From: an uncultured Victivallales bacterium
GTDB lineage: Bacteria > Verrucomicrobiota > Kiritimatiellia > UBA8416 > CAZWPN01
Reading direction: 5' to 3'
Assembly (NCBI GenBank): GCA_964635275.1
Contig: CAZWPN010000001.1
Span: 4,149 to 68,148, forward strand
DNA length: 64,000 nt
Below, in pieces: positions 1 to 64,000 of this stretch. Numbering within the stretch: position 1 is the stretch's first letter; each line of letters begins with the position of its first letter. Under the pieces are notes generated by a model. The model was not told where the DNA came from, did no database searches, and saw nothing but the letters and a program-made list of their open reading frames with translations. The position numbers and the translations under genes are program-made.

Positions 1-1608
1 CGCAGGCCGCTCATGGCATGCAGGTCACCGAGGCTCAGAAGCACGTCTGAAGTCCGCCATTGGTACGTGTCGGAGATTAGTCTTCCACTGCGAGTCAGCG
101 CGCCGTGAGAGAGGACAACGCCCTTTGCCTGCCCGGTGGTGCCCGAGGTGAACAGCACAGCGGCCGCATCCGAAGGCTGCACGTCGGCATCTGTCGGCTG
201 TTCGCCGCCCGCATCAATCCACGCGGTGAACAATTCCGGCCCGTCCGTCGCCGGCTCCTCGTCGTCAAACACCACGATGTCGTCGGGCGACACCCCCGGC
301 AGTTTCCTGGCGCTGACGCGGTCGCAGAATACAACCCTGGGTTGTGCGCGGGCGATGATTCCCGCCAGGACATCCGGCGGAAGTTGCGAGTCGAGAGGCA
401 CGAACACCACACCCGCAATGGCGCAGGCCCAGAACAGCAGGACCGCCTCCGTATGCAGAGGCGAACAAACGCAAACCCGGTCGCCCTTTCTCGCTCCGTG
501 CGTCCACAAAGCCGAGGCAACCCGCGCGACTACTTCGCGCGCGTCTCCGTAGGTGAACATGCCGGCATCCTGCGCCGATACCAGCAAGGGTCTCTGCGCA
601 TGCTCCTCAGTCGCGGCAGCCCAGAGCGCGGGGATGGTGTCTACTCGCGCCGTTCGCCCGGCCGTCTGCGCCCCATCCGTGTAGTAGATATCCATGCAGC
701 CCGAACACAACCGGTTCGCCCCGTACCTGCCGGTCCTGTGTTGTTCCCGAATGGCGGCGAGACTGGAACCGTTCCATATTTCCTTTAGCGAACTTTCCCT
801 GACATTGCCAACCGCGTTTGCCCCGTTGTAGTCCCGACAGCACGGCACAACCGTCCCGTCCCACTGCACTACCAGATACTGCCACGGAAATGGGCACGGC
901 ATGAACGGAGGGTACTTGGTCACATGCCCGAGGTCTGCCATCTCCTTCTCCGTCCACGGGAAGAAAGGTCGCACATCAACGGTGATCCCTTCGGCCTCCC
1001 ATTCCCGTTTGAAGCGATCCGCTGACGAAGCGTTGGCGTTTAGGTGGATCAGGCGGAGACATATTCTGGTCGCCGGCCGGGTCTGTCTGACCAGCGATAT
1101 CAGGTTACGCACATTTCGAACTGCCGCGGCATGGTCGGCCGCCGCGCCGCGCACCGCCGCGTAGGTTTCCTGGTCGTGTCCGTCAAGGGACACTATTAGC
1201 CGGAACGGATTGCGCGCAAGGACGCGCTCCGCCATGTTCGGCGTAAGCAGGGGCGCGTTCACCGACAGAGTCACGTTCAGGGAGCGGGCGGATGCGTAGC
1301 CCACCATGTCGTCAATGCGCGGGTGCAACAGGGATTCCCCGAAATGAAAGAGTTCGATCTCCTTTGACCTCACCGGCTCGGAATAGGTGCTGACCTCGTC
1401 AATAACCTTCTCGTACAGCGCCATATCCATGCGCCCAAGCTGGCGCGTCATGTGTTTGGCCCTTGGACACATGATGCATGTGTACAGACACTCGTTCGTG
1501 GGCTCAATCTGGTGAAGGTGCGGTTCGTCTGTCCGCTGGGACTCGAGCAAATCACACCAGCCGCCCCGGCTTTGCAGGGAAGATGGGAATGGGGATTCAG
1601 TCACGGAG
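1..1608 (-). CDS. Radical SAM/SPASM-domain protein fused in-frame to an AMP-dependent synthetase/ligase (adenylation) domain. Partial: the C-terminus runs off the left edge of the window.
   Basis: Manual minus-strand translation from GTG ~1608 (preceded by AGGAGG) gives ...IEPTNECLYTCIMCPRA... (CxxxCxxC radical SAM cluster). A C-terminal Cys-rich SPASM-like region follows (VVPCCRDYNG...CSGCMD). It continues without a stop codon into MFTYGDAREVV...GDRVCVCSPLHTEAVLLFWACAIAGVVFVPLD...LFTSGTTGQAKGVVLSHGAL (AMP-binding motifs) to position 1. The listed 116-aa ORF 607..957(-) is a wrong-frame shadow of this gene. Confidence 0.7.
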
Positions 1609-2686
1609 CGCCTCCTGTCTTCGCCCCAACCTGCAATCCGGCAGATTGCCTCTGGCTGATCGCGTCACTAATGGCTTTGGCCAGGTGTTCGGCGATGAGA
1701 CGGCAGCCTCGCGCGCTAGGATGCGCCCCGTCATCTGTCTCGACCTGCATCGAGTCCAGATCGACCAGGATCGCTCCGGCCTGCCTGGCGACATCCCGTA
1801 CCATGGCGTTGTAGGCCACCTGCTGCGCCGCATAGTAGTATTCCCACGGCAGATCAGGTCTTTTGTCCTTACCGGTCCGATCGTAAACCGCGGCACGTTC
1901 TCTCTGTTCTGTAGACTCGGCACGGAAGGCCAGAAGTACCGGCACTGTGCCGGCTGCCTTGGCTTTCAGAACGATTGACTCCAGGGATCCCCTGGCGGAC
2001 TCTACGGTCAGCCTATGCTTCACCAATTCCGGCCCCAGCAGACGCCGCAGCTTCCGGGACATGCGGAGTTGCATCACGGCTGGGTCTGTCAGCAACAGAA
2101 GGTGTCTGAGCGCCATTGACCTGTGCCATACCGAATTCACGAAGGCCAGATGCCCGGCCTCGTCGTGCCAACCTACCAGCCGGGACAGGCCCCAGCCGGT
2201 GAAACTCACCACCACAAAACCCGGTTTGATCCGAGGTACAACATCATTCATCAGAATGCTGCCGTGAAAGAGCGTGTACGCGCAAACGCCGAAGTTGAGG
2301 ACAGCGGCGTCCGACCAACCGTACTGCTCGCGTAGAACCCGCTCCAGATGTCTGGGCGCTGTCTCGGACTCATCAGCCACAGTCAGGCCAAGGGCTTCGG
2401 ACGCGCCAATCCATGCTATCCGCTGGGGGTCGTAGGCGGGACAGTCACCTGCGCGGGGGCCACGCCACCCATCGGGATTGACACATTCGCGCCCGCCGGT
2501 CCATATCAGTGCCGCACCTGGCCGCATGCGCCAGCTCAGAGACGGATCATCCTGGTGAAACGACGGAGCCCACCAATCCGCCAGGCGCAACCACACCTCC
2601 AACACGCCAAGGGCCAAGAGTAGTCCGCCGGAAACGTACCAGCACCACTTTGATCGCCCTCCCGCCTTCGTGACCATGCCTTCCAT
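1601..2686 (-). CDS. Membrane-anchored SGNH/GDSL-family hydrolase (probable glycan O-acetyl esterase/acetyltransferase-type).
   Basis: ORF 1601..2854; an N-terminal TM helix (WCWYVSGGLLLALGVLEVWL) follows the probable ATG start (MEGMVTKAGG) at ~2686. C-terminal DDGAHPSARGCRLIAEHL resembles the SGNH DxxH block. The stop overlaps the downstream GTG start (GTGA). Confidence 0.55.
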   Translation of the reverse strand: MEGMVTKAGGRSKWCWYVSGGLLLALGVLEVWLRLADWWAPSFHQDDPSLSWRMRPGAALIWTGGRECVNPDGWRGPRAGDCPAYDPQRIAWIGASEALGLTVADESETAPRHLERVLREQYGWSDAAVLNFGVCAYTLFHGSILMNDVVPRIKPGFVVVSFTGWGLSRLVGWHDEAGHLAFVNSVWHRSMALRHLLLLTDPAVMQLRMSRKLRRLLGPELVKHRLTVESARGSLESIVLKAKAAGTVPVLLAFRAESTEQRERAAVYDRTGKDKRPDLPWEYYYAAQQVAYNAMVRDVARQAGAILVDLDSMQVETDDGAHPSARGCRLIAEHLAKAISDAISQRQSAGLQVGAKTGGAP

Positions 2687-2999
2687 TACCGCTCCGGATA
2701 GTGTACTGTGCGCGTCGTGTCGAGGATGCGACGTCTCATACAGCGGCTGCTTCCCCGGATCAAAGGCGCTGACGAACGGCAAACACTCGCCATGACAAGC
2801 CCCCTTGCAGTCCGTTCCCACACACTGCGCGCGCGATGCTATCCGACGAACCAAGTGCGTTCAATAGAAATTTGGGCTTTCACCAAAGAGCGACATTCCA
2901 TGGTTGGCAATGGGCTGCCTGCTCTGTAGGATCACGCCGCGAAGAAAATGGTGATAGACTATGCACGGAATGAAGAACGTTTCTTCCCGCGGTTTGCCC

Positions 3000-4178
3000 A
3001 TGAGAGATGGAGAACGGCCCCACATACTCCACGTCATCACGAGGATGGACGCCGGCGGCGCGGCAACCAACACACTTCTCGGCATGGACGGGGTTCGTAA
3101 TCACGGTTTCGATGTGACTCTTGTGTACGGCCGGACCAATGATCCCGACGGAAGTATCTCGGCACGGGTCCGGGATATGGGCATACCGGCCGTGCTCATT
3201 CCGTTCCTCGTCAGGGATGTCTCGCCGATCAGCGACCTGCGGGCTGCGGCCGCCATATATAGAATAATGAAGGCGGGCAAGTTTGCCCTCGTGCACACAC
3301 ACACTTCGAAAGCGGGAGCTCTCGGACGCATCGCGGCCAGATGCCTGCGTACTCCGGTCATCCATACACCCCACGGGCACATATTCTACGGTTATTTCGG
3401 CCCCTTGGGTACAACCGTCTACACGCATGTTGAGCGTTTCCTCGCACGGTGGTCGCACGGGCTTGTTTCCCTTACCGAAGACGAAACCATTGAGTGCCTG
3501 AAGCGGGCGATCGGCCGGCGAGAACAGTTTCACACCATCCCAAGCGGAGTGCCACTGGCTCACTTCATGGGCATTGCCCGTCAGGATGGGCTCGATCTGC
3601 GACATCACTGGGGCCTCCACGACAAATCCGTGCTTTTCGTTTCGGCTGGACGGCTGGTCCCGATCAAGGGGTTTGACTCACTGCTGCGTTCATTTGCCGT
3701 TTGCAGAGCACACAATCCCCACTGTTTCCTTGGCATTGTCGGAGACGGGCCCGAACGCGCATCGCTGGAGAAGTTGGCCGCATCCCTCGGCGTGGATCGG
3801 TGCGTCAGGTTCGCCGGCCACATGCACGACATCCGCCCCGCACTCAGCGCGGCGGATGTCTTTGTGCTGGCCAGCAAAAACGAAGGCATGGGCCGCGTCA
3901 TTGTTGAAGCGATGGCGGCCGGACTGCCGGTGATCGCAACAAAGGTCGGAGGGATTGTGAACTTGCTTCGTTCCAACGACACCGGCATACTGGTCGCTAA
4001 GGACGATACGGTCGCACTGGCAGACGCCATGAGGGAACTCGCCGATGATCGGACCAGGAGGCTCCGGATGGGTGCATGCGCCCGCGCGGAAGTCTATCCC
4101 GAATATGATCTGGAAACCATGGTTGCGCGCCTTGCGGACCTTTATAGACAAACGATCGCAGGAACCGGGAAAACGTAG
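3000..4178 (+). CDS. GT4-family (GT-B) glycosyltransferase.
   Basis: ORF 2961..4178. N-terminus ILHVITRMDAGG; C-terminal NEGMGRVIVEAMAAGLPVIATKVGG (EX7E-type GT4 motif). Confidence 0.8.
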   Translation: MRDGERPHILHVITRMDAGGAATNTLLGMDGVRNHGFDVTLVYGRTNDPDGSISARVRDMGIPAVLIPFLVRDVSPISDLRAAAAIYRIMKAGKFALVHTHTSKAGALGRIAARCLRTPVIHTPHGHIFYGYFGPLGTTVYTHVERFLARWSHGLVSLTEDETIECLKRAIGRREQFHTIPSGVPLAHFMGIARQDGLDLRHHWGLHDKSVLFVSAGRLVPIKGFDSLLRSFAVCRAHNPHCFLGIVGDGPERASLEKLAASLGVDRCVRFAGHMHDIRPALSAADVFVLASKNEGMGRVIVEAMAAGLPVIATKVGGIVNLLRSNDTGILVAKDDTVALADAMRELADDRTRRLRMGACARAEVYPEYDLETMVARLADLYRQTIAGTGKT

Positions 4179-4226: not shown

Positions 4227-4937
4227 ATGATCTGCGCCATTCACCAGCCTCAATTCCTGCCATGGCTCGGGTACTTGAACAAGTTCAACTCGGCGGACAT
4301 CGTAGTGCTGCTGGATAATGTCCAATTCCGGAAAAACGAGTTCCAGAACCGGAACCGCTTCTGCATACCAACAGGGACACATTGGCTTACCGTGCCGGTT
4401 ACTTTCAACTTCGGGGACACCATAAGGGGTGTCCGGGTTGCACAGGAGCCGTGGGCGCCGAAACTGTGGCGCACCATCGAGCACACTTACGCCAAGGCGC
4501 CATATTTCGCCGCCTATGCGCAGGGATTGAAGGCCATTCTTGATCGCCAATGGACAAGTCTGGCAGACATCAATGAAGCCACGGTTCGCTGGCTTCTTGA
4601 CTGCTTTGAGATCAGGACTCCTCTTGTGGTAGCATCACAGATGCCGGCCTTCACCGATGAGCGGACGGAGCGACTTGTGGACATCTGCCGCCATCTCAAA
4701 GCCGACGTCTATCTTTCCGGCAGTTGCGCCAAATGCTACCTCGAACTGGAAAAGTTCGAGTCGGTCGGTATCAAGGTCGAGTTCCAGTTATTCGAACATC
4801 CGGTCTACCGTCAGGTCAACAGCCCTGACAGTTTCCAATCCCACATGTCAGCCATCGACGGCCTGTTCAATTGCGGCGGCGGCATCGAGGGGCAGAAGTT
4901 GCTCAACCTCACACCAGCCATGGGGAACGCGCACTAA
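4227..4937 (+). CDS. WbqC-like family protein (O-antigen cluster protein of unknown biochemical function).
   Basis: 236 aa, MICAIHQPQFLPWLGYLNKF...VLLDNVQFRKNEFQNRNR, typical of the WbqC-like family. The stop overlaps the next start (TAATG). Confidence 0.6.
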   Translation: MICAIHQPQFLPWLGYLNKFNSADIVVLLDNVQFRKNEFQNRNRFCIPTGTHWLTVPVTFNFGDTIRGVRVAQEPWAPKLWRTIEHTYAKAPYFAAYAQGLKAILDRQWTSLADINEATVRWLLDCFEIRTPLVVASQMPAFTDERTERLVDICRHLKADVYLSGSCAKCYLELEKFESVGIKVEFQLFEHPVYRQVNSPDSFQSHMSAIDGLFNCGGGIEGQKLLNLTPAMGNAH

Positions 4938-5989
4938 TGCTTCCGCACGCAAGAATCCGAGCCTCGGAGGCTGACAAGGTTGCGGTGCTGGCAGTGCTGG
5001 AAAGTGGCCACTGGGCTGACGGGACTGAAGTGGCACGACTCGAAGAGAGCCTCTCCCGGCTCTGCGACGGGGCACATGCAGTAGCAGTCTCATCCGGAAC
5101 CGCAGCTCTATACCTGGCCCTTGATGCAGTAGGCGTATCGCCAGGCGACGAAGTAGTGATTCCCTCATATGCATGCAACAGCCTCTATGCTGCGGTTTCA
5201 CACGCTGGCGGACGGGCAGTCTGCGCCGATACCGGTTCGCGCACGGTAACACTGACACCAGACACCGTAAGGGCTGTGGCTGGATCATCAACCCGCGCCG
5301 TGATCGCCCCGCACACGTTTGGCTATCTGGCGGACATTACCAGCATCGGCGCCATCGGCCCCGCAATCATCGAGGACTGCGCACAGGCGATTGGAGGGAA
5401 ATACCCCGACGGGGCCCCGGTCGGAACAAAGGGGCAGGTGGGCGTCTTTTCGTTTCATGCCACAAAGATGCTGCCATCTGGCGCGGGAGGCGCCTGTGTA
5501 ACGCGGGATGCGGCGCTTGCGAACAGGATCCGCCGCCTGCGCTACTGCGATGAACGGCCCATTGATGCGAGGGCGTTCAACTTCAGACTTAACGATTTGT
5601 GCGCGGCCATTGCGCGTGTCAGGATTCCGCTGCTGCCATCTTGGATCGCCGAAAGAGCACGAATTGCCGATATGTACGACAGGCACCTGTCTCCATGGTC
5701 CTTCGCCAGGAACAACTCCATCAGGCAGGCCGTATGCTACAGGTACATCGTCAAGGTCAACGGCAACATGGAGAGGTTCCTTGCTGAGGCTTCGACTGCA
5801 GGCATCACCTGCCGCAAACCCGTCTGGAGGCCTCTTCACCACGCCTTGGACGGCCACTGCCCAAGAACAAATGAGTTATGGGAAACGACGGCGTCCATTC
5901 CGATGTATCCGGGATTGGAAGATGAGGAAATCGAACATGTATGCAAAACGCTTCCATCGCTGCTTTCCGCGGCGAACCTGCCTTCCTGA
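4937..5989 (+). CDS. DegT/DnrJ/EryC1/StrS-family PLP-dependent sugar aminotransferase (ArnB/WecE-like).
   Basis: ORF frame 4871..5989 with ATG at 4937. Motifs GDEVVIPSYAC, FSFHATKMLPSGAGGA (PLP-Lys region), and ...NFRLNDLCAAIA. Confidence 0.8.
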   Translation: MLPHARIRASEADKVAVLAVLESGHWADGTEVARLEESLSRLCDGAHAVAVSSGTAALYLALDAVGVSPGDEVVIPSYACNSLYAAVSHAGGRAVCADTGSRTVTLTPDTVRAVAGSSTRAVIAPHTFGYLADITSIGAIGPAIIEDCAQAIGGKYPDGAPVGTKGQVGVFSFHATKMLPSGAGGACVTRDAALANRIRRLRYCDERPIDARAFNFRLNDLCAAIARVRIPLLPSWIAERARIADMYDRHLSPWSFARNNSIRQAVCYRYIVKVNGNMERFLAEASTAGITCRKPVWRPLHHALDGHCPRTNELWETTASIPMYPGLEDEEIEHVCKTLPSLLSAANLPS

Positions 5990-6085
5990 CGGCGCGTCGC
6001 CACAGCAGGCGAACACAAGACGGCCTGACTTCGGGATCGGATCGTCCCGCAGGCGCTTTGGCAACATCCATTGGAGTCATTGACC

Positions 6086-7996
6086 GTGTGTGGAATAGTG
6101 GGTGTTGTATATCCGCAGGACGCATCGGCACTCAGGCCAGTGGTAAAAAGGATGGCCGATGCACTGGTTCACAGGGGCCCCGATGACGAGGGCTTCTTTG
6201 CCACCAACGGATTCGCGATCGGGTTCAGGCGTCTGAGCGTTCTTGACATCGGCGGTTCGCACCAGCCTATAGGAGGTGAGGACGGTACTGTGCAGATTGT
6301 CGGGAACGGCGAGATATACAACTATTCAGCACTCCGCTCGGAATTGCTGACACTTGGCCACGAGTTCAGGACCAACGGCGACATTGAAGTCGCGCTACAT
6401 GCCTACGAGCAATGGGGCATGAGTTTCCTCCGACGCCTTCGCGGGATGTTCGCAATGGCCATTCTCGACACGAAGAACGGACTGCTCCACATCGCCAGGG
6501 ACAGGGTTGGTATCAAACCTGTGTTCTACTACCACAGCGGCAACCGGCTCTTGTTCGGTTCGGAGATCAAGGCCATACTCGCATCCGGGCTGGCTCCACG
6601 CGAGGTCGACTGGGATGCCATTGACTCCTACCTGTCACTGCTGTACGTACCGGCACCCAACACCGCATTCGCCGGCATCCGCAAGCTGCCACCCGCTTCC
6701 GTTCTGACCTTCGACGGCCGTGTAGCCAGACTCAATAAATACTGGGAGCCGCGCCGGGAGACGGCCGTCGGCATGAACATCGAGGAGGCCTCCGAGCGAT
6801 TGCACGCGATCCTTCTTGACGCCGTGCGGCTGCACATGCAAAGCGATGTCCCCGTCGGCTTCTTCCTGAGCGGAGGAATGGACTCGAGCGCAATGGTGGC
6901 GCTCGCGGCCGAGGCCGGAGTCGCGCACCCTATAACTTTTTCGGCCGGCTTCCACGAGAAGTCGCACAACGAACTGGAGTATGCCAGGACGGTAGCCTCA
7001 CGGTTCTCCTGCGACCACCACGAAATGATGGTACGCCCGGACGCCGCGGACGTGCTGCCGCAGATAGCACAGGCATTCGATGAGCCGTTTGGCGATGCAT
7101 CGGCCGTGCCCACCTACTACATAAGCCGCTTCGCGGCTGGTCACGTAAAAGTCGCCATCGGCGGAGACGGAGGCGATGAACTGTTCGCGGGCTACGAGTG
7201 GACGAGGCGGCAACGTTTTGTTGAGCAATGGAATCGCCTGCCCCCGCCCCTGCGGAGGATCGCCGGGGCGATTACGCGCAACATAACACATTCATCTTCC
7301 GCGGCGGGCAAGTTCGCACGGTTCATCGCCGACGCCGCCTCCAACCCGCTCGACGGGTATCTTCGTCGCATCTCCTGCTTCACGGCGGAACACAAGGCTG
7401 GCGTCTACGGTCAGCGGCTCATGCAATCGCTGACATCCTCCACGGTACGCGCGCTCATGGCCGGATCCTTCGCCACGTCTGATACGGATCCCGTGAAAGG
7501 CATGAACGCCGCGGACTTCGATTTCTATCTTCCGGACGACGACCTGTGCAAGGTGGACCGCATGACCATGCTCCACTCGATCGAGGGCCGTGTGCCTCTT
7601 TTGGATCATGAAGTTGTCGAGTTCGCGCTCTCCCTGCCGCTGGAAATGAAGCTCAAGGGGCTCACCTCCAAGTTTATCCTCAAGAAATGCATGGAGAAGA
7701 CCCTCCCTCCGGAAGTGATGCGACAGAGAAAGCACGGCTTCGCCATACCCGTATCACGGTGGACGCGGAACGAACTCCACGGCGACATACGACGGATACT
7801 TCTTTCAGGCGCCGAAAGACGCGCGGACGTCTACAACCGGAATGGCTTGAGCCTGATGCTTGACATTCACAGGAGCGGACGGCAAGACCATGGCAGCAGG
7901 CTCTGGGCACTGCTCGTCCTGGAGCTATGGTTCCGCATGTACGTTGACGCGCCAGGCTGCGGCGGCGACAGGGGGCTCCGACTGTCGGACTTCTAG
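6086..7996 (+). CDS. Asparagine synthase-type (class II, Ntn) glutamine amidotransferase, AsnB/WbpS-like.
   Basis: GTG start gives MCGIVGVV (Cys2 nucleophile). GNGEIYNY, then SGGMDSS (PP-loop ATP pyrophosphatase motif). 637 aa. Confidence 0.85.
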   Translation: MCGIVGVVYPQDASALRPVVKRMADALVHRGPDDEGFFATNGFAIGFRRLSVLDIGGSHQPIGGEDGTVQIVGNGEIYNYSALRSELLTLGHEFRTNGDIEVALHAYEQWGMSFLRRLRGMFAMAILDTKNGLLHIARDRVGIKPVFYYHSGNRLLFGSEIKAILASGLAPREVDWDAIDSYLSLLYVPAPNTAFAGIRKLPPASVLTFDGRVARLNKYWEPRRETAVGMNIEEASERLHAILLDAVRLHMQSDVPVGFFLSGGMDSSAMVALAAEAGVAHPITFSAGFHEKSHNELEYARTVASRFSCDHHEMMVRPDAADVLPQIAQAFDEPFGDASAVPTYYISRFAAGHVKVAIGGDGGDELFAGYEWTRRQRFVEQWNRLPPPLRRIAGAITRNITHSSSAAGKFARFIADAASNPLDGYLRRISCFTAEHKAGVYGQRLMQSLTSSTVRALMAGSFATSDTDPVKGMNAADFDFYLPDDDLCKVDRMTMLHSIEGRVPLLDHEVVEFALSLPLEMKLKGLTSKFILKKCMEKTLPPEVMRQRKHGFAIPVSRWTRNELHGDIRRILLSGAERRADVYNRNGLSLMLDIHRSGRQDHGSRLWALLVLELWFRMYVDAPGCGGDRGLRLSDF

Positions 7997-23648: not shown

Positions 23649-25067
23649 TTAACGCTTGCCGGGGCGGGCTGAAGGGCCTGTTGCGCGGTCGGCCATGCGG
23701 GAGAAAGAATCTTTGTAGGCACTCAGGTGGTGCCGTATTGCGGTGCAGCCGTAGGCGGCAAAAACAATGACGATAGGCATGAGCGGCCAACGGTAACGTA
23801 TCTCGGTTATCGTCAGGATTAACATGCCGGTGCATACAAGGAATAGCGCAACAAGCAGACTTATGCCAACGCCATCTATCTCCTCAACTGACTGCATCAC
23901 GGGAACAGGGACAGCAGCACCAGCGCCGCCATGTGAATGACCCATACCGCAATCGGCAGAATCCGCGTCGCTCTTCTTTCGCCGGCGAAACCGTAATACT
24001 CGCCAGGCAACAATCATGCCTATCGCGGACAACGGGTAAAGAATGCAAACATCCTGCATCCACATCACGATGGTGTTGATCCGACGGCTTCCCTCATACG
24101 AAGGGCGGAACAGGTTTACAGCACGCCGCCAGCATAACCATGCGTAGCGCCCAGGGTTCTCCCGTATGAATGTTGCCGCCTCATGGTGCAGAAAACGATC
24201 CTGCTGCACTTCACTGCGCCCATCCGGAGGCGGCAATCCACCAGTGTCGATTCCCTGCAGTATCCATCCTCCGAAACCGCCATTGGATTTGGGGTTGTTG
24301 GCGCGGTAGATACTGATCCCGCCTCCTGACGACAAGGGAATCCATGTTCCCATGGAAACATAATTGCGTGCGATCCATGGCGACCAACATAAGGCGAACG
24401 CCAGCGTCACACAGGCCAGGGCAGGAAGAGCTCGGTGGTGGTGGCGCAGCAACAGCACTAAAGCCAGTAAGGAAGCCACCGCCAGTCCGATGGGACGAGT
24501 CAACAAGCACAACCCAAGAACCGCACCGGTCGCCAGCGCCAAGGTGATGCTCTCGACCTTCCGCAAGAGATGCACCCCAAGCAAGACTCCAAGAAACAAC
24601 AGGGTAGTGTAGAGGCATTCCGTCATTATGTAACACGGCATCTGTACCAGTGGCAGGTAGAGTGCACCCATCAGCAAGGCCCACAGCCCAGCCTCGCGAC
24701 CAAAGACCGCGCACGCAATTTGCGAGATGAGCAGACACAACAGAACTGCCATGACGACTTGGACCACGCGTACCGCGACCACATTGGGTCCTGCTATCGC
24801 GAATACCGCCGCAACCAGACCGGCGTACCCCGGCATGATGCTGGCCGTTGGGCGTCCCTCGATACTGTAGCCCTCGGAATTGAGCAGAGACAGCGCCAGC
24901 CCGGTATAATCCGTGGAATCGGCTTCGTAAGTTCGATTCAGATAGTACCGATCGCCCGGGTGCATGAAGAAGTACAGTAAACGAACGGCGAGCGCCAGAG
25001 CCAGACCGGCAAAAAGCAGCCATCTGGTTGAACGGTGCACTGTGCGGGCACACGGGCGATCTGGCAT
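23649..25067 (-). CDS. Polytopic GT-C fold glycosyltransferase (ArnT/PMT/GT39-like).
   Basis: 10 or more TM helices (e.g. LLFAGLALALAV, VVMAVLLCLLISQIACAVF). Second GT-C enzyme in the locus. Confidence 0.5.
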   Translation of the reverse strand: MPDRPCARTVHRSTRWLLFAGLALALAVRLLYFFMHPGDRYYLNRTYEADSTDYTGLALSLLNSEGYSIEGRPTASIMPGYAGLVAAVFAIAGPNVVAVRVVQVVMAVLLCLLISQIACAVFGREAGLWALLMGALYLPLVQMPCYIMTECLYTTLLFLGVLLGVHLLRKVESITLALATGAVLGLCLLTRPIGLAVASLLALVLLLRHHHRALPALACVTLAFALCWSPWIARNYVSMGTWIPLSSGGGISIYRANNPKSNGGFGGWILQGIDTGGLPPPDGRSEVQQDRFLHHEAATFIRENPGRYAWLCWRRAVNLFRPSYEGSRRINTIVMWMQDVCILYPLSAIGMIVAWRVLRFRRRKKSDADSADCGMGHSHGGAGAAVPVPVMQSVEEIDGVGISLLVALFLVCTGMLILTITEIRYRWPLMPIVIVFAAYGCTAIRHHLSAYKDSFSRMADRATGPSARPGKR

Positions 25068-25155
25068 CCCAGGATCTTGATTGCGCGCTGTCACTGTGAC
25101 GCTTTCATGTGCGAGACCATGTCGCATCGGCCTACGTTCATACGAACGGTCCTCC

Positions 25156-26085
25156 TCACATCTTGAGAGCAGATGGAATCCTGAGCCCTCTGAGGACCCC
25201 GCGCAAGATCGCCGCCGTCTCCCGCCAGTGCCCATTCCTCAATTCGGGATACAGACTGCCGATGAAGATGCTCCGTAACATGCGGAACAACAGACCGCAC
25301 CTTCCGCGCCGGGACTGCGAAAGGAAGAACCAGAGGCGATTCCTTGTCCTGAAAAAATAGAATTGCGGCGTACACTTGCCGAGCGAGGACGAAACATCAT
25401 GCAAGGCGCGCACGCGAGGCGATGCCCACAGCGAGAATCCCTGCCGCTTTATCTTCCAGCACCAGTCCGTGTCTTCAAGGTATATGACGTAATCGTCAAC
25501 AAACTCCCCGCAGCGTTCCACGGCAGCGCGCGTTGCACACAGAAACGCTGTTGGAATGGTGTCTACTTCCCTGTCATAGGCGAATGCACCGTCAATCTTC
25601 CCGCCCTGCCCCCCGTCAAACATGCTGCCGTCCGCCCAGTCTATCAGCCCGCCGCCGGCACACCAGCATACATCTGGCTCTGCTTGGTACGCGATGTGCG
25701 CTCCAACAGCCCCGACATTGCCCATCCGCCCGTTCCCCTCATCAAGAAACCTGACAGCCTGCTCCAGCGTATCAGGGAAAACGACAATGTCGTTATCCAT
25801 GAATGCCAACGCACGCCAATTCCTGGAGTCCCTGAAACGACGCAGGATGATGTTACGCCCTGCGGCCGCGCCTATGTTCGCAGCTTCCGTGTGTGTCGTT
25901 ACAAAAGGATAGACTGATGCCGCCTCGGCGATGCCCTGGCCTGATCCGTTATCCACGATCAGGACGTCAAAGGATGTATATGTGCTTCTGGCCAGACTCT
26001 CGAGACAAGCCATGGTCTTGTCCTTGTGGTTGCAGGCCAGTATTCCCACCAGCAAACGATCACAGTCACTTGCAGGGCTGACCAT
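25156..26085 (-). CDS. GT2-family glycosyltransferase.
   Basis: LLVGILACNHKDKT...VLIVDNGSGQG...AFMDNDIVV. Confidence 0.75.
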   Translation of the reverse strand: MVSPASDCDRLLVGILACNHKDKTMACLESLARSTYTSFDVLIVDNGSGQGIAEAASVYPFVTTHTEAANIGAAAGRNIILRRFRDSRNWRALAFMDNDIVVFPDTLEQAVRFLDEGNGRMGNVGAVGAHIAYQAEPDVCWCAGGGLIDWADGSMFDGGQGGKIDGAFAYDREVDTIPTAFLCATRAAVERCGEFVDDYVIYLEDTDWCWKIKRQGFSLWASPRVRALHDVSSSLGKCTPQFYFFRTRNRLWFFLSQSRRGRCGLLFRMLRSIFIGSLYPELRNGHWRETAAILRGVLRGLRIPSALKM

Positions 26086-53468: not shown

Positions 53469-55889
53469 ATGAAAAATGCCTTGCTAGTTCCCGATCCCGA
53501 GCGACTCCGCCGCAAACTGACGAATCCCCCACCCTTACTGGCGAAACTCCAACGGCGTTTCCAGGAACGGCTTGCCGCGGATCCTGAGTTCCGCCGGCAT
53601 CACATCTTCCTGCCCGCGCTGCTCGGGGATCCGGCCGCCATTGCCGAAGCGAGGGAGCAGATCGTCACGCTTGCGGCAGACCCCGTCGAGTTGGCCACCA
53701 CCCGGCCCGGCGCCCGGACGCCGCCGCAGAACAGTCTCGATCATCATATCTGGTGCATCGCCCCGCGGGCCATGCGCATCGCCGCCTATTTCACGTGGCT
53801 TGACCTTCACGGCGTCTGGACGCCCGCGGAGCGTTGCACGATCGGCGCCGGGTTGCTGGACTTCTTCGACAACCATGTGATCCCGGTCTTGCGCGCGCGC
53901 ACCCCCGGCGGACACAATCAGCAGTTCTCGATGACATTCTGCAGTACCGTCGTTGGACATGCCTTTGCGGATGTGGACGGGGTTGCCGAACGCGCCTGCC
54001 GGTTGCGAAACTGGGCGTTCCCGAAGTTAACGCAGACGCTTGGACTCCTTCCCGCGAGCGGCTACTCCGGCGAAGGGACGACCTACCAGTCCGACGTGGT
54101 CGCGGCTTTGACCCTGTGGGCAGGCGTCTTTCTCAAACAGATCGGCGAACACGACGTCTGGAACCGCCGCTGGACGCCCAACGGATGGCGTATGGCCGAC
54201 ACGCTGCGGATGGAGGCACTGATGTGCAGTTGCGGCGGATGGCTGCCGCCGTGGGATCAGTACGGCTGGCAGCGGGTTCACAACTTGGCCGCACGCACGC
54301 TCTGGGCGGAGCTGTCCGGCGATGCCGGAATGCTGCGCATCGCCGAGGACGCCTGGGACGAGCCGCACCACCTGGCCTGGCGGCCCGACGACCGGCTGTG
54401 GACGCTGATCTACTGGCCGGAGGAGGAGGGGGAACGGTGGTCTGTGGTCGGTGATCGGTTACCGGTAACGGAGCGTCACGTCTCAGCATCGCCTGGACAA
54501 GGGCATAGTCAGCCGTCCGACAACCGAAAACCCACAACCGACAACCGGACACCGAACACCGTTCTTTCCGGCTGGAGTGTTCCGGTGGTCGGCGCCGCAG
54601 TCGAGCACCTGCCGCGGCGGCTGCGCGTCATGGCGGCCTGGGATGAATGCTCCGGCAGCCTCCAGGGCCTCGGCCGCGCCCAAGTCAACCCGAACCACCT
54701 GATGATCGACCTGGCCGGCGAACCGGTCACAGGCGACGGCTGGGATCTTGTCGGCCTTCGGCTGACCTCTGATGAGGCGCGCGAACGAACGAGGCACGCT
54801 CTCCCGCCGGTCCAGATGGAAATGATAGCAAGGCAGTACGGCAGCTTCGAGCGATGGGTGCGCGCGAGTGAGAACGGATTTCTGGGCGCATCCTGCGCGA
54901 TCATCGTGGACGGCTGGGACAGCTACTTCCCCCGCAAGGCCCGGCAGGGACAACTGGTGTTCGAGCGGCGGACACCGGAACGGCACACGTTCGCCGGCGA
55001 GGCGGCCCCGTACTATCAGCCGGCCTTTGACGTGACGCGGATGCGGCGTACCGTTTCGATGGGCGCTTCAGGCGTCACCTGGATCGTGGACGACATCCGG
55101 TCCGGGTCTCCGCACATGTTCACATGGCGGATGTGGCTGCGTGGCGGCTTGCGCCAGGCCGGCCCGCAGGCCCGGCGGCTCGATCTTCAATCCGGAGTCG
55201 CACTGGCTCTCGGCTGGCGTGTTGAGACGGAGGGAGAGGCCCGGCCTGTTGATGTTCGCGCCGAAAAATGCGAAGCCTATCCGCTGGCGCCGGACGATCC
55301 TCGGACCCACTGGCCCAGCAAGAATACCACGCGCTGTGAAGTGAACGCGACAGGACGGCGGGTCCGCTTTGTAACCTGCCTGGTGCCGGAGGGGGTCGAC
55401 GGATTGCAGGTGCGGCAGATGGCACCCGAGACCTGGGAGGCGGTCTGGGCCGGCGGAGCCGACACCTTCGTCCTGCCACCCGAGGTGGAAGCTACGCCGG
55501 ATCCCGCTCCGATCGTCGGCGCCCAGATTGCGGCTGAAGAAACCGTCTGCGATCTCGACGAGGCGCCCTATGGGCTGATCGCCGAACCCGATGCGGTGCT
55601 GCTCGCGGCGCTGGACAGCCCGCCGGTTGAGGCCTTTCGCCGCACCGGGGCGGCCATGCTGACCCTGACGATTCGAGGATGCGCAGACGCCATGCCCAAG
55701 ATCATGGCCCTGCTGGAAGATGCCCGCCAGAACTACACGGTCCACTCCGTGGCCGCCTGGTGCCTGGGGCGCGCGCAATACCGGCCCGCGCTTGAGCTGC
55801 TGCGAAGGGTCTCCCACATCCCCGAGGTCAACACGGCCCTCCGTGCCGGTTGGGCGGTGGAGCGGATGGAAGCAAGTAAGAGGAGGTAG
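53469..55889 (+). CDS. Heparinase II/III-like polysaccharide lyase-family protein (tentative).
   Basis: 806 aa; N-terminal alpha-helical toroid-like region followed by a beta-rich C-terminus. Assigned by overall architecture and composition only. Confidence 0.3.
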   Translation: MKNALLVPDPERLRRKLTNPPPLLAKLQRRFQERLAADPEFRRHHIFLPALLGDPAAIAEAREQIVTLAADPVELATTRPGARTPPQNSLDHHIWCIAPRAMRIAAYFTWLDLHGVWTPAERCTIGAGLLDFFDNHVIPVLRARTPGGHNQQFSMTFCSTVVGHAFADVDGVAERACRLRNWAFPKLTQTLGLLPASGYSGEGTTYQSDVVAALTLWAGVFLKQIGEHDVWNRRWTPNGWRMADTLRMEALMCSCGGWLPPWDQYGWQRVHNLAARTLWAELSGDAGMLRIAEDAWDEPHHLAWRPDDRLWTLIYWPEEEGERWSVVGDRLPVTERHVSASPGQGHSQPSDNRKPTTDNRTPNTVLSGWSVPVVGAAVEHLPRRLRVMAAWDECSGSLQGLGRAQVNPNHLMIDLAGEPVTGDGWDLVGLRLTSDEARERTRHALPPVQMEMIARQYGSFERWVRASENGFLGASCAIIVDGWDSYFPRKARQGQLVFERRTPERHTFAGEAAPYYQPAFDVTRMRRTVSMGASGVTWIVDDIRSGSPHMFTWRMWLRGGLRQAGPQARRLDLQSGVALALGWRVETEGEARPVDVRAEKCEAYPLAPDDPRTHWPSKNTTRCEVNATGRRVRFVTCLVPEGVDGLQVRQMAPETWEAVWAGGADTFVLPPEVEATPDPAPIVGAQIAAEETVCDLDEAPYGLIAEPDAVLLAALDSPPVEAFRRTGAAMLTLTIRGCADAMPKIMALLEDARQNYTVHSVAAWCLGRAQYRPALELLRRVSHIPEVNTALRAGWAVERMEASKRR

Positions 55890-55895: not shown

Positions 55896-57632
55896 ATGGA
55901 TCTGCGAAAGCATGCTCGTCTATCGCTCAAATTCCTGGAAACGGCCACCAACCCGGCCATGCAGGATCTGCCGTATTTCTGGATCGACTTTGTGCGGAAT
56001 CCGCCGGAATTTGTTCATTGCATGGTGTTTGACGATGTCGAAAACTTCGGGCGCTGGCTCTACGCCATCAAGGCGGCGCAGGTCGTCAGCGGGACGGATG
56101 GGGCCGAAGGCACCCGCCGCGCGATGATTCGCGAGATTGATCGCCGTCGGAACGGCCCGTATGGTCTCGTCTACACTTCGGCCTACAGCGAGAAGTTCTG
56201 CCGCGGCTTCCTTGGCCATCACGCCTGGCTCTGGGGCAACCGCTCCGTCCTCCAAGGATGGGTCCTGTGTTACCGCTTCGCCAGCGATGCCCGCGAGCGC
56301 GAGGAGATGAGGCAGCGCATCGACACCATGGTCTCCGGTATGAACGAATTCGTCGTCCGGATCGGCGACTGCGTCTATTTCCCATCCCTCACGCCCACCC
56401 GTGACTTCCGCAAGCGCGACGACTACATCGAGCCCCGGGAGGCTGCAGGAAAACACTGGAACGCCATGTACGGCTCGGCGGAGCCGGACGACCCGCGCAT
56501 GCTGCCGCACATCAGCGACAGCGTCGGCGGAATGATCGCGCCTCTTGTTCAGTGGTACGAAGCGACCGGGAATCAGACCGCCCTGGATCTAGCGGTCGGC
56601 ATCAGCCGCACCATGGTGAAGCATCACCACACCAAGGGAGACCTGACGAATCCAATCGGCTGCTTCTCCAACAATCACGGCGTGCTCAACGCCGTGGCGG
56701 GCGTGCTGGCCGCCAACCGACACGTGCCCGACCGCCACCACCGGATCTGGGCCAAGACGCTCTGGGAGTACTACGTGGCCCGCTGTGCCTCCTCGTTCGG
56801 CTGGGCGCCGGAGAATGAGCGGGTGGACTACACGCGCCCGCTGGAGCGGCCGTCCTGTGAAGGCTGCGCCACCGTTGACATGGTTCGCGCCGGCGTCGAG
56901 CTGGCGCGCGCCGGCTTTTCCGAGTCGTGGGACATGGTGGAGCGTTTCACTCGCAACTACATGACCCAGGCACAAATCCAAGATGACGTGAAACCGTTCT
57001 CCCTGGAAGGCGTGCCACTCAACGATGTCAGCCGTGGCGGCATCGAATGCGAACCTGAAGCCTTGCGCGATCGCCGCGATATCTACACCCGCTGCATCGG
57101 CGCTTTGGCCGGCTGGGGCGCTCCGAACGACGTGCTGGACCCGCACGGCCGCTTCGCGATGTGCATCCAGAACTGCTGCAGCGGTCACTTGCCTCTGGGA
57201 ATGCTCGACGTGTGGAGCCAAACGGTCGTGCGCGACTCCGAGGGTGTCCGGATCAATCTGCTTCTGGACCATGAAAGCCCGGACGGTTCGGTAAAGGATC
57301 ATCAACCCACCGACGGCCGACTGGACATCCGGATGAAACGGGCCGGCACCGTGCGTGTGCGCATTCCCGACTGGGTTCCGGATGCCAAGGTGGCGATCCG
57401 TGTGGATGGCCGGGGCGTTCCGGCGGTATGGGAAGACAGGCCCAGTCGCTACATTCGCGTGAGCGACGTGGCCGCTGGAAGTACGGTTGCGGTGAACTAT
57501 CCGTTGCGAGCGCAGACAATGACGGAGCGACTTGGCGGCGAACTCTACACCACGCAATGGAAGGGCGATACGGTGGTTGGAATCGAGCCGCCGGGGCGGT
57601 TCATTCCAATCTTCAATGGACGCAAGGACTGA
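55896..57632 (+). CDS. GH127/DUF1680-like six-hairpin glycosidase (tentative).
   Basis: 578 aa; Cys-containing CEGCATVDM region and helical-repeat N-terminus. Low-certainty architecture-based call. Confidence 0.3.
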   Translation: MDLRKHARLSLKFLETATNPAMQDLPYFWIDFVRNPPEFVHCMVFDDVENFGRWLYAIKAAQVVSGTDGAEGTRRAMIREIDRRRNGPYGLVYTSAYSEKFCRGFLGHHAWLWGNRSVLQGWVLCYRFASDAREREEMRQRIDTMVSGMNEFVVRIGDCVYFPSLTPTRDFRKRDDYIEPREAAGKHWNAMYGSAEPDDPRMLPHISDSVGGMIAPLVQWYEATGNQTALDLAVGISRTMVKHHHTKGDLTNPIGCFSNNHGVLNAVAGVLAANRHVPDRHHRIWAKTLWEYYVARCASSFGWAPENERVDYTRPLERPSCEGCATVDMVRAGVELARAGFSESWDMVERFTRNYMTQAQIQDDVKPFSLEGVPLNDVSRGGIECEPEALRDRRDIYTRCIGALAGWGAPNDVLDPHGRFAMCIQNCCSGHLPLGMLDVWSQTVVRDSEGVRINLLLDHESPDGSVKDHQPTDGRLDIRMKRAGTVRVRIPDWVPDAKVAIRVDGRGVPAVWEDRPSRYIRVSDVAAGSTVAVNYPLRAQTMTERLGGELYTTQWKGDTVVGIEPPGRFIPIFNGRKD

Positions 57633-63600: not shown

Positions 63601-64000
63601 TGACAGACAACCGGAGGTCCACCGCTTCCGCGCGCTCATCTGTCAGCCGGAGCATGATGTCGTACAGGGCCTTTTGCTGCTCCGGATCCTTGCGGGAATC
63701 CTGAAAGGTCTTGCAAAGCCGGATGGCTTCTTGGAATTGGGCGTCCTGTTCCAGTTCGTAAATCCTCTGCAAGTCCAGCGCAAAAGAGGCGTCGAACGCG
63801 ACCCGGACAACCTCCGACGTATCGGTAACGGAACCGCCTACCGGCATCACGACTGTTGCGTCTGCCGCAATTTCGTTGGTTTTTGCAGCAGGCGTGTTCG
63901 TTGCGGATTCAACGACTGTGGGTGGATTCGTTGCAGCAACGATCGGGAGCGGTGCCTGATGTTCGACCGATGGCAATGGCTGCTTCGCCGCCACTTCCGT
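57662..64000 (-). CDS. Giant (>2100 aa) repetitive protein made of at least six tandem modules of a HEAT/ARM-like helical segment plus a PA14 carbohydrate-binding domain. Partial: the N-terminus lies beyond the right edge.
   Basis: PA14 signatures recur roughly every 320 aa (FSARWTGFLDIPKAGTYTFYASADDG; LSARWSGTLLVTQPGDYVIWV; ISARWTGTLLVNQPGAYVMYV). HEAT-like blocks recur between them (FLRNAIRHKPD..AKAAAAIL...LLVERIRKTP.SAIVPDLL.NLR). The reading frame is open to the window edge. Confidence 0.75.
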   Translation of the reverse strand, partial: TEVAAKQPLPSVEHQAPLPIVAATNPPTVVESATNTPAAKTNEIAADATVVMPVGGSVTDTSEVVRVAFDASFALDLQRIYELEQDAQFQEAIRLCKTFQDSRKDPEQQKALYDIMLRLTDERAEAVDLRLSVRYLSSENQSYIQVAQEKLSNAGETGRIFLRKVVREDKDAAALIATRLLIEQADAKAYPLFAVQLARREFIPLLELMAQGMNVRIDNVQTNAFVTLHETILCDTNFVRRESAGVLVTAFEKRCRGAVEPYNQLIGATNAFETLRTYLENAMLSTDTQVVAWVCGHGGSLAGAFSTAVARYYADTQFGSLTNERPESQIAISGYNTPPFPGGPSENFSARWTGFLDIPKAGTYTFYASADDGGSVSVGTQILAGVVGSGTNMTVELKPGWVPISADLVQVQHGYGIRVDMSGPDMPRRLVDGGVLRSPPWKDAVLPLRQAIRDLTATNWITARAAKARLAWGFTAGDIYLRDALRNESDPVAARAAEWLVARRDTRAPAILIERIEKYPASPVIPELTVALRNMAPILAPDQIQYLYKTMLQDADASMLPHASALCALLNDVYGNDKTRFNQAVQDPKGYDQLQRYVQQATISAKDTVVVNACEYGIPFTPYLTGGLRGQYFYGQQFDELALERLEGRFELNDRSNPNPLPENRRGDSSLRWTGFLRIDTAAAYTFYSRSGGNSALFIDDRPVVNNWDWNERSGAPVTLEPGWHRMKAEGAVFEMSWSWTNVAKQIIAGNIFRTPIWRSALLTLPPAIDNLASTNLATMRAAAATLAQAQEFAPIFLRNAIRHKPDSMAKTAAAILTERNDAPTAVLLIERIRKTPDSAIVPDLLENLRSLAANIPPDLVPSLCEAIGADKDSRMIPEASILCIILDRLCSGKVEEFNKLAKDPKAHEQLKSYVEQACATTNDAVVMRAAQFGAPFVAPASGLRGRYYLGAYFEELTLDRLDPVASIPDRSYPWPSNQMKNVSVQWDGWLNVERAGDYTFDLNSGAWQGISIDGVPVQFQGEWNRRTNKVAVAAGVHRIRVTLQQGRDGWDWDIGGQLDWAGPGFGRRIIGPEALRTPLWPDALARLPGAINNLTSTNWAEVRTAKAVLLQAGDAGMTFLRNAIRYKPDPAAKAAAAILSQQNDAPAAALLVERIRKTPASAIVPDLLDNLRDLAVFVPADSLPFMLEAIRADKDVRMIPEAAMLCFVLDRTCGGNAESFNGLVKDPKAYEQLQGYVTQALASSNDAVVMSACRFGPSFVAPVPGLRGSYYLGQQRDELATERADASVSFRNQQYPVPANWQRDLSARWSGTLLVTQPGDYVIWVERAQAQAQLRIDERNLSFQQVPGDQNSYTNTITLAKGTHRIRLDAQLGGDWNQLTLYWNGPGIGKQIIPPSVLRTPLWQSELAKLPGAINSLTSTNWAEVRAAKATLLQSGDAGLHFLRNAIRHKPDAVAKAAAAILAEQYDASAAPLLVERIRKTPASAIVPDLLENLRDLAAFILADSLPALLEAVRADKDVRMIPEAAMLCIVLDRACGGNAESFNGLVKDPKAYEQLQGYVTQALASSNDAVVMSACRFGPSFVAPVPGLRGSYYLGQQRDELATERADASVSFRNQQYPVPANWQRDLSARWSGTLLVTQPGDYVIWVERAQAQAQLRIDERNLSFQQVPGDQNSYTNTITLAKGTHRIRLDAQLGGDWNQLTLYWNGPGIGKQIIPPSVLRTPLWQSELAKLPGAINSLTSTNWAEVRAAKATLLQSGDAGLHFLRNAIRYKPDPVAKAAAAILAEQYDALAAALLVERIRKAPDSAIVPDLFDSLRELGGFIPPDLAVPLYEAVRNDNSFRMIPEAAMLCMVLDRACGGSAEEFNKLTKDPKGYEQLKAYVEAAGASPNAAVVARAAALGAPFVAPVMGLRGRYYTGQLFDGQLAARIEAAVNIENSRIPAPNNQQRDISARWTGTLLVNQPGAYVMYVQRAHAQVQLWMDAKPLPLQQVPGDGQSWTNAIVLSSGTHQVRVDLQFGNDGQNNIALLWSGPGFTRQLISTNALSTALLPAEVALLPAAINSLGSTNKVEFEAAKATILQAGGAGKLYLKNAATSTKGPVAEAAAKLLKP
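58622..60390. repeat. Near-perfect in-frame tandem direct repeat, 2 x 969 bp (about 700 bp identical, flanks >95%), inside the giant PA14 gene. More diverged copies at the same period extend to ~62.6 kb.
   Basis: Identical ORF translations are reported at 58465..59253 and 59434..60222, at 58719..58904 and 59664..59873, and at 59019..59273 and 59988..60242, all offset by 969 nt. Direct sequence comparison confirms this. Confidence 0.9.

Follow-up and report, generated by a model that had tools for sequence, protein, structure and literature searches.

A radical SAM-ligase fusion gene opens a conserved cassette with a possible role in making or tailoring the acyl donor for Dlt-like envelope acylation

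What would a radical SAM enzyme do in one polypeptide with an acyl-adenylating ligase? This question is raised by the left edge of the window analyzed here, a stretch of 64,000 nucleotides (nt) from an uncultured Victivallales bacterium (GenBank assembly GCA_964635275.1, contig CAZWPN010000001.1, positions 4,149 to 68,148), where a minus-strand gene joins a radical SAM domain and an auxiliary Fe-S domain to a ligase of the ANL superfamily. We found homologues of this gene, fused or split in two, in a conserved six-component cassette. The fused gene comes first in this cassette. With a probability of roughly 0.6, we propose that the cassette encodes a Dlt-like pathway of envelope acylation, in which the radical SAM-ligase protein makes or tailors the acyl donor.

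By re-translating window positions 1-1700, we found a single stop-free frame on the minus strand that runs from a GTG at 1604-1602 to base 1, that is 534 codons. CLYTCIMC lies at amino acids (aa) 39-46 (nt 1467-1490) and TSGTTGQAKG at aa 486-495 (nt 120-149) of this frame, which bears out the original prediction of an in-frame fusion between a radical SAM and an adenylation domain. The gene was also predicted to run past the window edge, and indeed a metagenome contig of 5155 bp from the Joint Genome Institute (JGI), hereafter L001, reaches 1984 bp past the window and supplies the final 300 codons beyond base 1. The completed open reading frame (ORF) encodes one protein of 834 aa, in which a 14-residue linker joins the radical SAM domain to the first ligase (ANL-1). 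The parts of the gene and their supporting evidence are the following.

1..1604, minus strand: 5' part of the fused radical SAM/Twitch and ANL gene, 534 of 834 codons (stop-free frame, Pfam domains, completion from L001)
1098..1508, minus strand: radical SAM core, aa 33-169, including CxxxCxxC at 1467-1490 (C39, C43 and C46) (Pfam PF04055, homologue alignment, AF2 model)
696..896, minus strand: predicted Twitch-type (abbreviated SPASM) auxiliary Fe-S domain, aa 237-303 (Pfam SPASM, BtrN alignment)
639..680, minus strand: linker between the radical SAM and ANL halves, aa 309-322, TDGAQTAGRTARVD (alignment with two-gene versions; identical in L001)
1..638, minus strand: N-terminal subdomain of ANL-1, aa 323-534, with the A3 P-loop TSGTTGQAKG at 120-149 (Pfam AMP-binding, E 8.5e-37)
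6-29, minus strand: GDLHAMSG motif of acyl-CoA-ligase type within this subdomain (motif coordinates)
1601..1616, minus strand: signals of translational coupling, AGGAGG at 1611-1616, a 6-nt spacer, and GTG at 1602-1604 over TGA at 1601-1603 (direct sequence reading)

The predicted GTG start at 1604 is well supported. It overlaps the TGA stop of the upstream ORF, which encodes an SGNH-type protein, as GTGA (1601-1604), the Shine-Dalgarno sequence AGGAGG (1611-1616) lies 6 nt 5' of it, and the N-terminus counted from it aligns with those of homologues. The proposed coupling of the two genes is thus borne out by the overlap together with AGGAGG. As had also been pointed out, the fused gene is missing from the ORF list, where only wrong-frame ORFs appear at this place, because no stop codon falls inside the window.

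Both halves were recovered in profile searches. First, the window protein belongs to the radical SAM superfamily (PF04055), with Pfam Radical_SAM matching aa 33-169 at 39.2 bits (cutoff 29.5). Second, Pfam SPASM matched aa 237-303 at 63 bits (cutoff 21.5). Third, Pfam AMP-binding matched aa 331-531 at 127 bits (cutoff 29.9).

The SPASM assignment stood in part only: the Pfam match is there, the full domain is not. SPASM domains are defined by the seven-cysteine motif CX9-15GX4C ... CX2CX5CX3C ... C. In 98 homologues of the window protein C39, C43 and C46 are invariant, as are five C-terminal cysteines (C237, C255, C256, C300 and C303), which provide the first half of this motif (C237-x13-G-x4-C255) and one CX2C (C300, C303) downstream. 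C237, C255, C300 and C303 align with the only four cysteines of the BtrN Twitch segment (C189, C207, C252 and C255 of PDB 4m7t), with identical spacing of 18, 45 and 3. In BtrN, the auxiliary cluster is ligated by four cysteines (PMC10337720). Therefore, the alignment implies one auxiliary cluster. The Fe-S domain of the window protein is predicted to be an abbreviated, BtrN-type Twitch domain with a single auxiliary cluster.

Relatives with known functions point the same way. BtrN was the best PDB profile match of the family (E 1.7e-23), followed by TYW1, DesII and BlsE at 1e-7 or weaker. An AF2 model of the radical SAM domain (predicted local distance difference test, pLDDT, 95.2; predicted TM score, pTM, 0.91) shows alternating beta and alpha elements, and Foldseek against PDB placed BtrN first (E 7.6e-12), then DesII, CteB, anSME and BlsE, with SuiB and EpeE also found. 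The nearest characterized radical SAM relatives thus act on small sugar-like molecules, not on peptides.

The family itself is sharply bounded and uncurated. In a library of 1.84 billion representatives, nine scored above 380 bits, after which scores dropped to 291; from 291 bits downward lies a broader set of Twitch radical SAM proteins that is equally uncurated. No curated NCBIfam radical SAM family matched at its cutoff (the best, W_rSAM_matur, reached 92-107 bits against 380), and NCBIfam gave no curated function for the more distant Twitch relatives (P0129 and others). The stretch before CxxxCxxC is only about 30 residues long, and, like most members, the window protein carries no recognition element (RRE) for peptides that are made on ribosomes and modified after translation (RiPPs). 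In P0227, a distant Twitch relative of 1233 aa from the representative library that scores 207 bits against the family profile, the fusion partners are a GT8-like lipopolysaccharide (LPS) galactosyltransferase and a methyltransferase-like region; this hints that the wider uncurated Twitch superfamily may often be associated with glycans.

ANL-1 is predicted to be a complete acyl-adenylating ligase of the ANL superfamily. Its core motifs are all present in the 834-aa protein: TSGTTGQAKG at 486 (A3), YGMTE at 629 (A5), YRTGD at 706 (A7), GRKGDAIK at 724 (A8 hinge) and GTNGK at 816 (A10, with the catalytic Lys). In Pfam, AMP-binding was found on the window protein and AMP-binding_C on P0001, the JGI gene call for this gene on L001. 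On L001, the start of a second ligase gene (ANL-2) overlaps the stop of the fused gene by 14 nt. The ANL-2 proteins, about 610 aa long, carry a PP-binding domain at the C-terminus (24 bits against a cutoff of 20.8), in which a GWDS motif and its Ser are conserved. As in Dlt-type systems, where the carrier is loaded by an adenylating enzyme, this carrier domain is predicted to be loaded.

The kind of acid that the two ligases would activate may be reflected in their relatives. The best NCBIfam matches of the ligase half were acyl- and malonyl-CoA ligase families, all far under cutoff, and oxalate, malonate and feruloyl CoA ligases led the PDB matches of both ANLs, which also resemble fatty-acyl CoA ligases; DltA was not among the top 60 PDB matches of either. 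In amino-acid-activating A domains, such as those of nonribosomal peptide synthetases and DltA, the Asp of the A4 motif FDxS binds the alpha-amino group. By inspection only, the A4 position reads GDLHAMSG in ANL-1 and LPLHHADG in ANL-2, that is the LPLFHxxG pattern of acyl-CoA ligases and not FDxS.

The conserved partners of the gene emerged from the gene tables of 8 loci, to which 36 further loci were added from GTDB species genomes. Around fused (P0002, P0008, P0013, P0014, P0019) and stand-alone (P0025) homologues alike, we found the same downstream set: an AMP-binding gene of about 610 aa, a Pfam-less gene of about 300-320 aa, an MBOAT gene (about 375 aa) and a short ORF with about 45 codons. 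By searching 41 loci with jackhmmer, using iterated profiles seeded from the cassette proteins of locus L005, we recovered all six components in 29 non-redundant loci. The cassette consists of the radical SAM enzyme, ANL-1, ANL-2 with its carrier, a membrane-anchored SGNH-fold protein, a DltB-like MBOAT and a DltX-like microprotein of 45 aa that ends in F-x-Y-x-x-L. The genes come in three orders: the radical SAM gene leads, being fused to ANL-1 or overlapping it, follows the microprotein at the end, or lies on the opposite strand. The remaining loci are mostly cut by contig ends, and three (L013, L018 and L037) deviate. Further conserved neighbors, such as a phosphopantetheinyl transferase, a pyridoxal phosphate enzyme or a dehydrogenase, were sought across the loci and only shadow ORFs were found; as no other gene family recurs beside it, the cassette is self-contained.

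The hosts fall in at least seven phyla, with Nitrospirota, Desulfobacterota, Bacteroidota, Planctomycetota, Riflebacteria, Acidobacteriota and Beta/Gammaproteobacteria represented, and one of them is an isolate, Desulfopila sp. IMCC35008. The cassette is widespread in Gram-negative, mostly anaerobic bacteria. Its surroundings vary from polysaccharide loci (the window and L002) to housekeeping and signaling genes (L005, L043 and L045). The original prediction had set the fused gene in a glycan locus: the gene does sit at the edge of a locus of LPS/O-antigen type, but its conserved context is the Dlt-like cassette and not a glycan locus. The window itself carries only the first cassette gene, and the cassette runs off its left edge. 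Beyond that edge, an exact 50-mer of window positions 1-50 had no match among metagenome contigs, a scan for related loci with the L001 fragment of ANL-2 confirmed no relative, and an exact-protein look-up of the neighboring GT4 glycosyltransferase returned no record.

The three membrane-associated partners invite a comparison with Dlt systems. First, the only NCBIfam match of the MBOAT of the homologous loci is DltB (TIGR04091, E 5e-56), and its only PDB matches are DltB structures (6BUG and 8JEM, E 1.6e-35). It has the size of DltB (about 375 aa) and the WHE His, and it has no C-terminal FXYXXF. In these homologous loci, not in the window, it has the marks of a Dlt-type MBOAT. Second, the 29 microproteins (44-50 aa) have a basic N-terminus, one hydrophobic transmembrane helix with a conserved aromatic pair, and the C-terminus [F/I]-x-Y-x-x-[L/I/F], in which the Tyr is invariant and stands four residues from the end. 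In length, topology and position of the C-terminal Tyr they match DltX of Bacillus thuringiensis, which has 48 aa, a transmembrane segment at 12-33, the C-terminus FIYNEF and the invariant Y45 (PMC5541007). Their C-terminus also fits FXYXXF, the acyl-shuttle motif by which D-Ala is handed on from DltB to DltD (PMC12148441). Third, the cassette SGNH-fold protein has an N-terminal transmembrane helix and invariant G75-x-S77 and D290-x-x-H293. The top 47 Foldseek PDB matches of its AF2 model (pLDDT 78) are all SGNH/GDSL proteins, 6 of 26 members weakly match Lipase_GDSL_2, and NCBI labels one member an SGNH/GDSL hydrolase; the family profile gave non-significant matches only against PDB sequences (E>=0.13).

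What we observe is the fusion with its types of domain and a conserved cassette. From these we infer the sequence of steps and the radical chemistry, as well as the acyl group and the polymer that receives it, as follows. In the cytoplasm, a carboxylic acid, probably a small non-amino acid, would be adenylated and attached to the ANL-2 carrier as a thioester. The radical SAM domain beside ANL-1 would abstract an H atom from the acid, or from its activated or carrier-bound form, and thereby tailor the donor; by analogy with BtrN, the likeliest chemistry would be oxidation of a carbon bearing OH or NH2. The MBOAT would then move the acyl group across the membrane onto the Tyr of the microprotein, and the SGNH protein would transfer it to an envelope polymer on the periplasmic face, here plausibly the LPS or O-antigen of the adjacent locus. 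The idea from which we started, a radical modification of an adenylated substrate that ends on a glycan, is a fair reading; the route to the polymer would lead from the carrier through the MBOAT, the microprotein Tyr and the SGNH protein and would not be a direct attachment. Since the ANLs resemble CoA ligases, the hosts have no teichoic acids and neither the DltX nor the DltD model matches, the acyl group is probably not D-alanine. D-alanine as acyl group with teichoic acid as acceptor seems unlikely.

Several observations weigh against this proposal. First, the similarity to BtrN amounts to 19% identity with TM scores of 0.56-0.72, so that the chemistry could differ; at this identity, and with no aminoglycoside genes in the 41 loci, the window protein is probably not an orthologue of BtrN as 2-deoxy-scyllo-inosamine (DOIA) dehydrogenase. 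Second, both ANLs resemble CoA ligases of several kinds, which does not single out the acyl group, and the proposal gives no reason for two ANLs at one carrier domain. Third, the Dlt likeness has limits: the MBOAT scores 190 bits against a DltB equivalog cutoff of 375 bits (TIGR04091), the microproteins gave no match to the Pfam DltX model at E<=1 and none in NCBIfam, and the cassette SGNH-fold protein did not match the Pfam DltD model and shows no similarity specific to DltD. Fourth, only the first two genes of the cassette are seen in this genome, the SGNH-fold, MBOAT and microprotein genes being placed here by synteny with homologues. Finally, a few loci break the pattern, L013 and L018 among them. 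In L013 (a Nitrospirae metagenome-assembled genome, 9977-14386), the radical SAM gene and both ANLs stand without an SGNH, MBOAT or microprotein gene in the nearest 10 kb, and in L018 (9965-15437) ANL-1 is missing, ANL-2 is shortened and the MBOAT lies on the opposite strand; both may be decaying or split cassettes.

We then weighed the other explanations. It is unlikely, in our estimate, that the radical SAM enzyme is a maturase of RiPP or protein type that modifies the 45-aa microprotein or another cassette protein, such as the carrier domain or, in the style of anSME, the Ser of the SGNH protein, with the ANL activating a carboxylate of the peptide or protein concerned. SPASM/Twitch radical SAM enzymes are best known for peptide maturation, CteB, anSME, SuiB and EpeE are among the fold matches, and a conserved short peptide gene always accompanies the radical SAM gene, directly adjacent to it in the order in which the latter comes last. 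Moreover, the winged-helix-like insert of 60-90 aa that some fused homologues carry (see below) could recognize a peptide. However, the best relatives in sequence and fold, BtrN and DesII, as well as the lower-ranked BlsE, act on small molecules, there is one predicted auxiliary cluster, and most members, the window protein among them, have no RRE. The fusion partner is a ligase and not a peptide-binding domain, and the microprotein is a transmembrane DltX look-alike whose Tyr motif has a known role as acyl shuttle (PMC12148441).

Quite improbable, in our view, is a direct tailoring of sugars, in which the radical SAM enzyme, in the manner of BtrN, DesII or BlsE, would work on an intermediate of the adjacent glycan locus, a sugar or nucleotide-sugar, and the ANL would N- or O-acylate the sugar with no MBOAT route. 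The substrates of the closest characterized relatives are an aminocyclitol, a TDP-amino-sugar and a glucuronate nucleoside; the window neighbors include a DegT aminotransferase, WbqC, an AsnB-like amidotransferase, an epimerase/dehydratase and many glycosyltransferases; L002 too lies in a polysaccharide locus; and the distant relative P0227 is fused to a glycosyltransferase. Yet the radical SAM gene keeps company with the ANL, carrier, MBOAT, SGNH and microprotein set in 29 loci, many of which have no sugar-nucleotide genes nearby (L005, L043 and L045), and no sugar-pathway gene family recurs beside it. The proposed Dlt-like pathway, in which the enzyme tailors an acyl donor, is the reading that we retain.

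The rSAM-ligase fusion on which the proposal builds is real and no artefact. Over window positions 1-3171, L001 is 99.84% identical to the window, with 4 mismatches and 1 indel, the latter in a G-run near 2801, distant from the junction at 639-680. A frameshift or stop at the junction, looked for in this independently assembled contig, was not there: the junction is identical and the frame uninterrupted. In a search space of 5.8 billion proteins, of which we examined the best 120 clusters, 24 clusters were fused homologues (690-930 aa, 42-67% identity) that align across the junction, with linkers of about 10 to 90 aa; the other 96 were stand-alone radical SAM proteins of about 310-345 aa (50-64% identity). 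In a rough neighbor-joining tree of the radical SAM domain, computed with no bootstrap, the fused forms fall into at least eight separate all-fused clades. With linkers so varied, fusion or fission must therefore have happened repeatedly. In the two-gene versions, the stop of the radical SAM gene overlaps the start of the ligase gene, by 20 nt in L005 for instance, and fusions would therefore arise easily. The linker of the window protein aligns with the C-terminus of the radical SAM protein and with the N-terminus of ANL-1 in these versions. We thus give almost no credence to the idea that the organism has two genes, joined only by a frameshift from sequencing or assembly or by the loss of a stop codon: a single indel could fuse halves that are separate with a few-nt overlap in most relatives (20 nt in L005), but the same junction in an independent assembly, the 24 fused homologues in at least eight clades with varied linkers and a linker homologous to residues on both sides speak against it. 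The fusion had been called unusual. Full-text literature searches, whose coverage of subscription papers is incomplete, returned no paper on the cassette and no characterized radical SAM-ANL example. The fusion is not an isolated case: it recurs in at least eight clades, and its halves are more often separate adjacent genes. The cassette variant, a Twitch radical SAM enzyme with two ANLs in Gram-negative lineages and sometimes a radical SAM-ANL fusion, is apparently new, whereas MBOAT-SGNH acylation of Dlt type is itself known.

Two further observations concern the fused proteins. First, the JGI gene call P0001 (783 aa; L001 1720-4071, that is window 1-1451 and beyond) begins at an internal ATG (MTRQLG...) and so loses CxxxCxxC, which is why its precomputed Pfam list has no Radical_SAM; P0009, P0014, P0006, P0011 and P0020 are apparently likewise truncated at the N-terminus. 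Second, nine fused proteins (P0005, P0006, P0010, P0011, P0019-P0022 and P0026) carry a linker insert of 60-90 aa resembling a winged helix-turn-helix (HTH) between the Twitch CxxC and the ANL N-terminus, which the window protein does not have. Its matches are weak and below cutoff (MarR_2 at E 2e-4 in P0010, HTH_23 in P0020, HTH_45 in P0021). This insert could be a docking or recognition element.

Upstream of the fused gene lies the gene to which it is coupled.

1601..2686, minus strand: membrane-anchored SGNH/GDSL-like gene, 361 aa (Pfam Lipase_GDSL_2, 33.3 bits, cutoff 32.9)

Its product has a transmembrane helix at about aa 15-35, GASE at aa 94 and DGAH at aa 319. Most plausibly, it starts at the ATG at 2686 and not at the longest-ORF start at 2854. 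The indel between the window and L001 (window about 2801-2811) is a difference of one base in a G homopolymer, GGGGG versus GGGG, that lies upstream of the likely start, in the extension 2687-2854; the call of a 417-aa ORF is therefore further doubtful. We also considered whether this gene could be the cassette SGNH gene in a new place and rejected it: hhalign gave a probability of 0.5%, and tblastn found no homologue in 44 loci. The partnership claimed for it therefore holds here, where the two genes are coupled, but not as a conserved one, as no counterpart of the upstream SGNH gene occurs at the other loci. The gene is a lineage-specific addition or a member of the glycan locus, co-transcribed here without belonging to the conserved set of the cassette.

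The rest of the window is a region of LPS/O-antigen type. It holds GT4 and GT2 glycosyltransferases, a GT9 heptosyltransferase-like gene, WbqC, a DegT aminotransferase, an AsnB-like gene, an epimerase, Wzm/Wzt transporter genes, a methyltransferase, a deacetylase and a WaaL/Wzy_C-like gene. LPS or O-antigen is therefore a plausible acceptor here. Within it, the WbqC-like ORF (4227-4937, plus strand) overlaps the start of the DegT/DnrJ/EryC1 aminotransferase ORF (4871-5989, plus strand), and the AsnB-like amidotransferase (6071-7996) comes next; this trio would point to an amino-sugar in the adjacent glycan that carries an unusual N-substituent. At the other end of the window (57662-63994, minus strand), an ORF of 2110 aa that may continue past the window end contains repeated PA14 domains and a weak GLEYA match, and has the look of a giant surface protein, carbohydrate-binding or adhesin-like. 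Three ORFs have no Pfam match at E<=1e-5: 23649-25235 (minus strand, 528 aa) within the glycan region, and 53469-55889 (plus strand, 806 aa) and 55896-57632 (plus strand, 578 aa) beyond it, just upstream of the PA14 ORF.

What would such a pathway mean? Acylation of the envelope, as in D-alanylation or when peptidoglycan, alginate and cellulose are O-acetylated, alters surface charge, resistance to antimicrobial peptides, biofilm properties and recognition by phages and the immune system. We hold it at about even odds that the cassette is an unrecognized carrier-dependent envelope-acylation system of Gram-negative, mostly anaerobic bacteria, whose donor is made or tailored by a BtrN-like radical SAM enzyme with an adenylating ligase. 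If so, it would be the first radical SAM step in the acylation of a cell-envelope polymer, and LPS, O-antigen or another periplasmic polymer would receive an acyl decoration that is not D-alanine and may be new. The arrangement of carrier and microprotein in DltC and DltX has been treated as specific to Dlt, and the other bacterial MBOAT-SGNH systems as users of acetyl-CoA (PMC12148441); Dlt logic would then operate well outside Firmicutes, with another acyl group obtained through radical chemistry. The cassette also gives a genetic and biochemical context to an unannotated Twitch radical SAM family and to the uncharacterized radical SAM-ANL architecture. With a cultured host, Desulfopila sp. 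IMCC35008, and a compact unit of six genes, the question is directly testable.

How does the system compare with known ones? The window radical SAM domain shares CxxxCxxC with BtrN (PDB 4M7T), the radical SAM 2-deoxy-scyllo-inosamine dehydrogenase of butirosin biosynthesis, with a TM score of 0.72 on the target. It exceeds BtrN by about 70 residues, with a conserved extension (P..L.SR.GW) at the N-terminus, has an extra invariant cysteine (C256), is fused or adjacent to an ANL ligase and has no aminoglycoside cluster around it. With the SPASM peptide maturases (anSME, CteB, SuiB, PqqE, MftC) it shares the match to the Pfam SPASM model, and these enzymes occupy lower places in its fold-search list. 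Unlike them, it has no seven-cysteine two-cluster motif, no RRE, no PqqD domain and no cytoplasmic precursor peptide, and no NCBIfam maturase family reaches its cutoff here.

As for acylation, the O-acetylation systems of PatA/PatB, AlgI/AlgJ/AlgX and WssH type likewise combine an MBOAT with an SGNH protein, a pair that acylates an extracytoplasmic polymer via an acyl-Tyr shuttle motif (PMC12148441). However, those systems use acetyl-CoA directly, with FXYXXF on the C-terminus of their own MBOAT, and have no ANL, carrier or radical SAM enzyme, whereas here the motif is on a separate microprotein. The closest likeness is to Dlt (DltX, DltA, DltB, DltC and DltD): an adenylating enzyme with a phosphopantetheinyl carrier, a DltB-like MBOAT with no fused C-terminal shuttle motif, a separate single-transmembrane microprotein of about 45 aa ending in F-x-Y-x-x-hydrophobic, and a membrane-anchored SGNH-fold protein with Ser, Asp and His. 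Several features set the cassette apart from Dlt: it has a radical SAM enzyme and one ANL more, its carrier is fused to ANL-2, its ANLs resemble acid:CoA ligases and, on inspection, have no amino-acid-binding Asp, and its hosts belong to phyla of Gram-negative type with no teichoic acids. MBOAT/SGNH pathways other than Dlt have been described as having neither a carrier protein nor a DltX-like microprotein (PMC12148441), and the cassette is an exception to this generalization.

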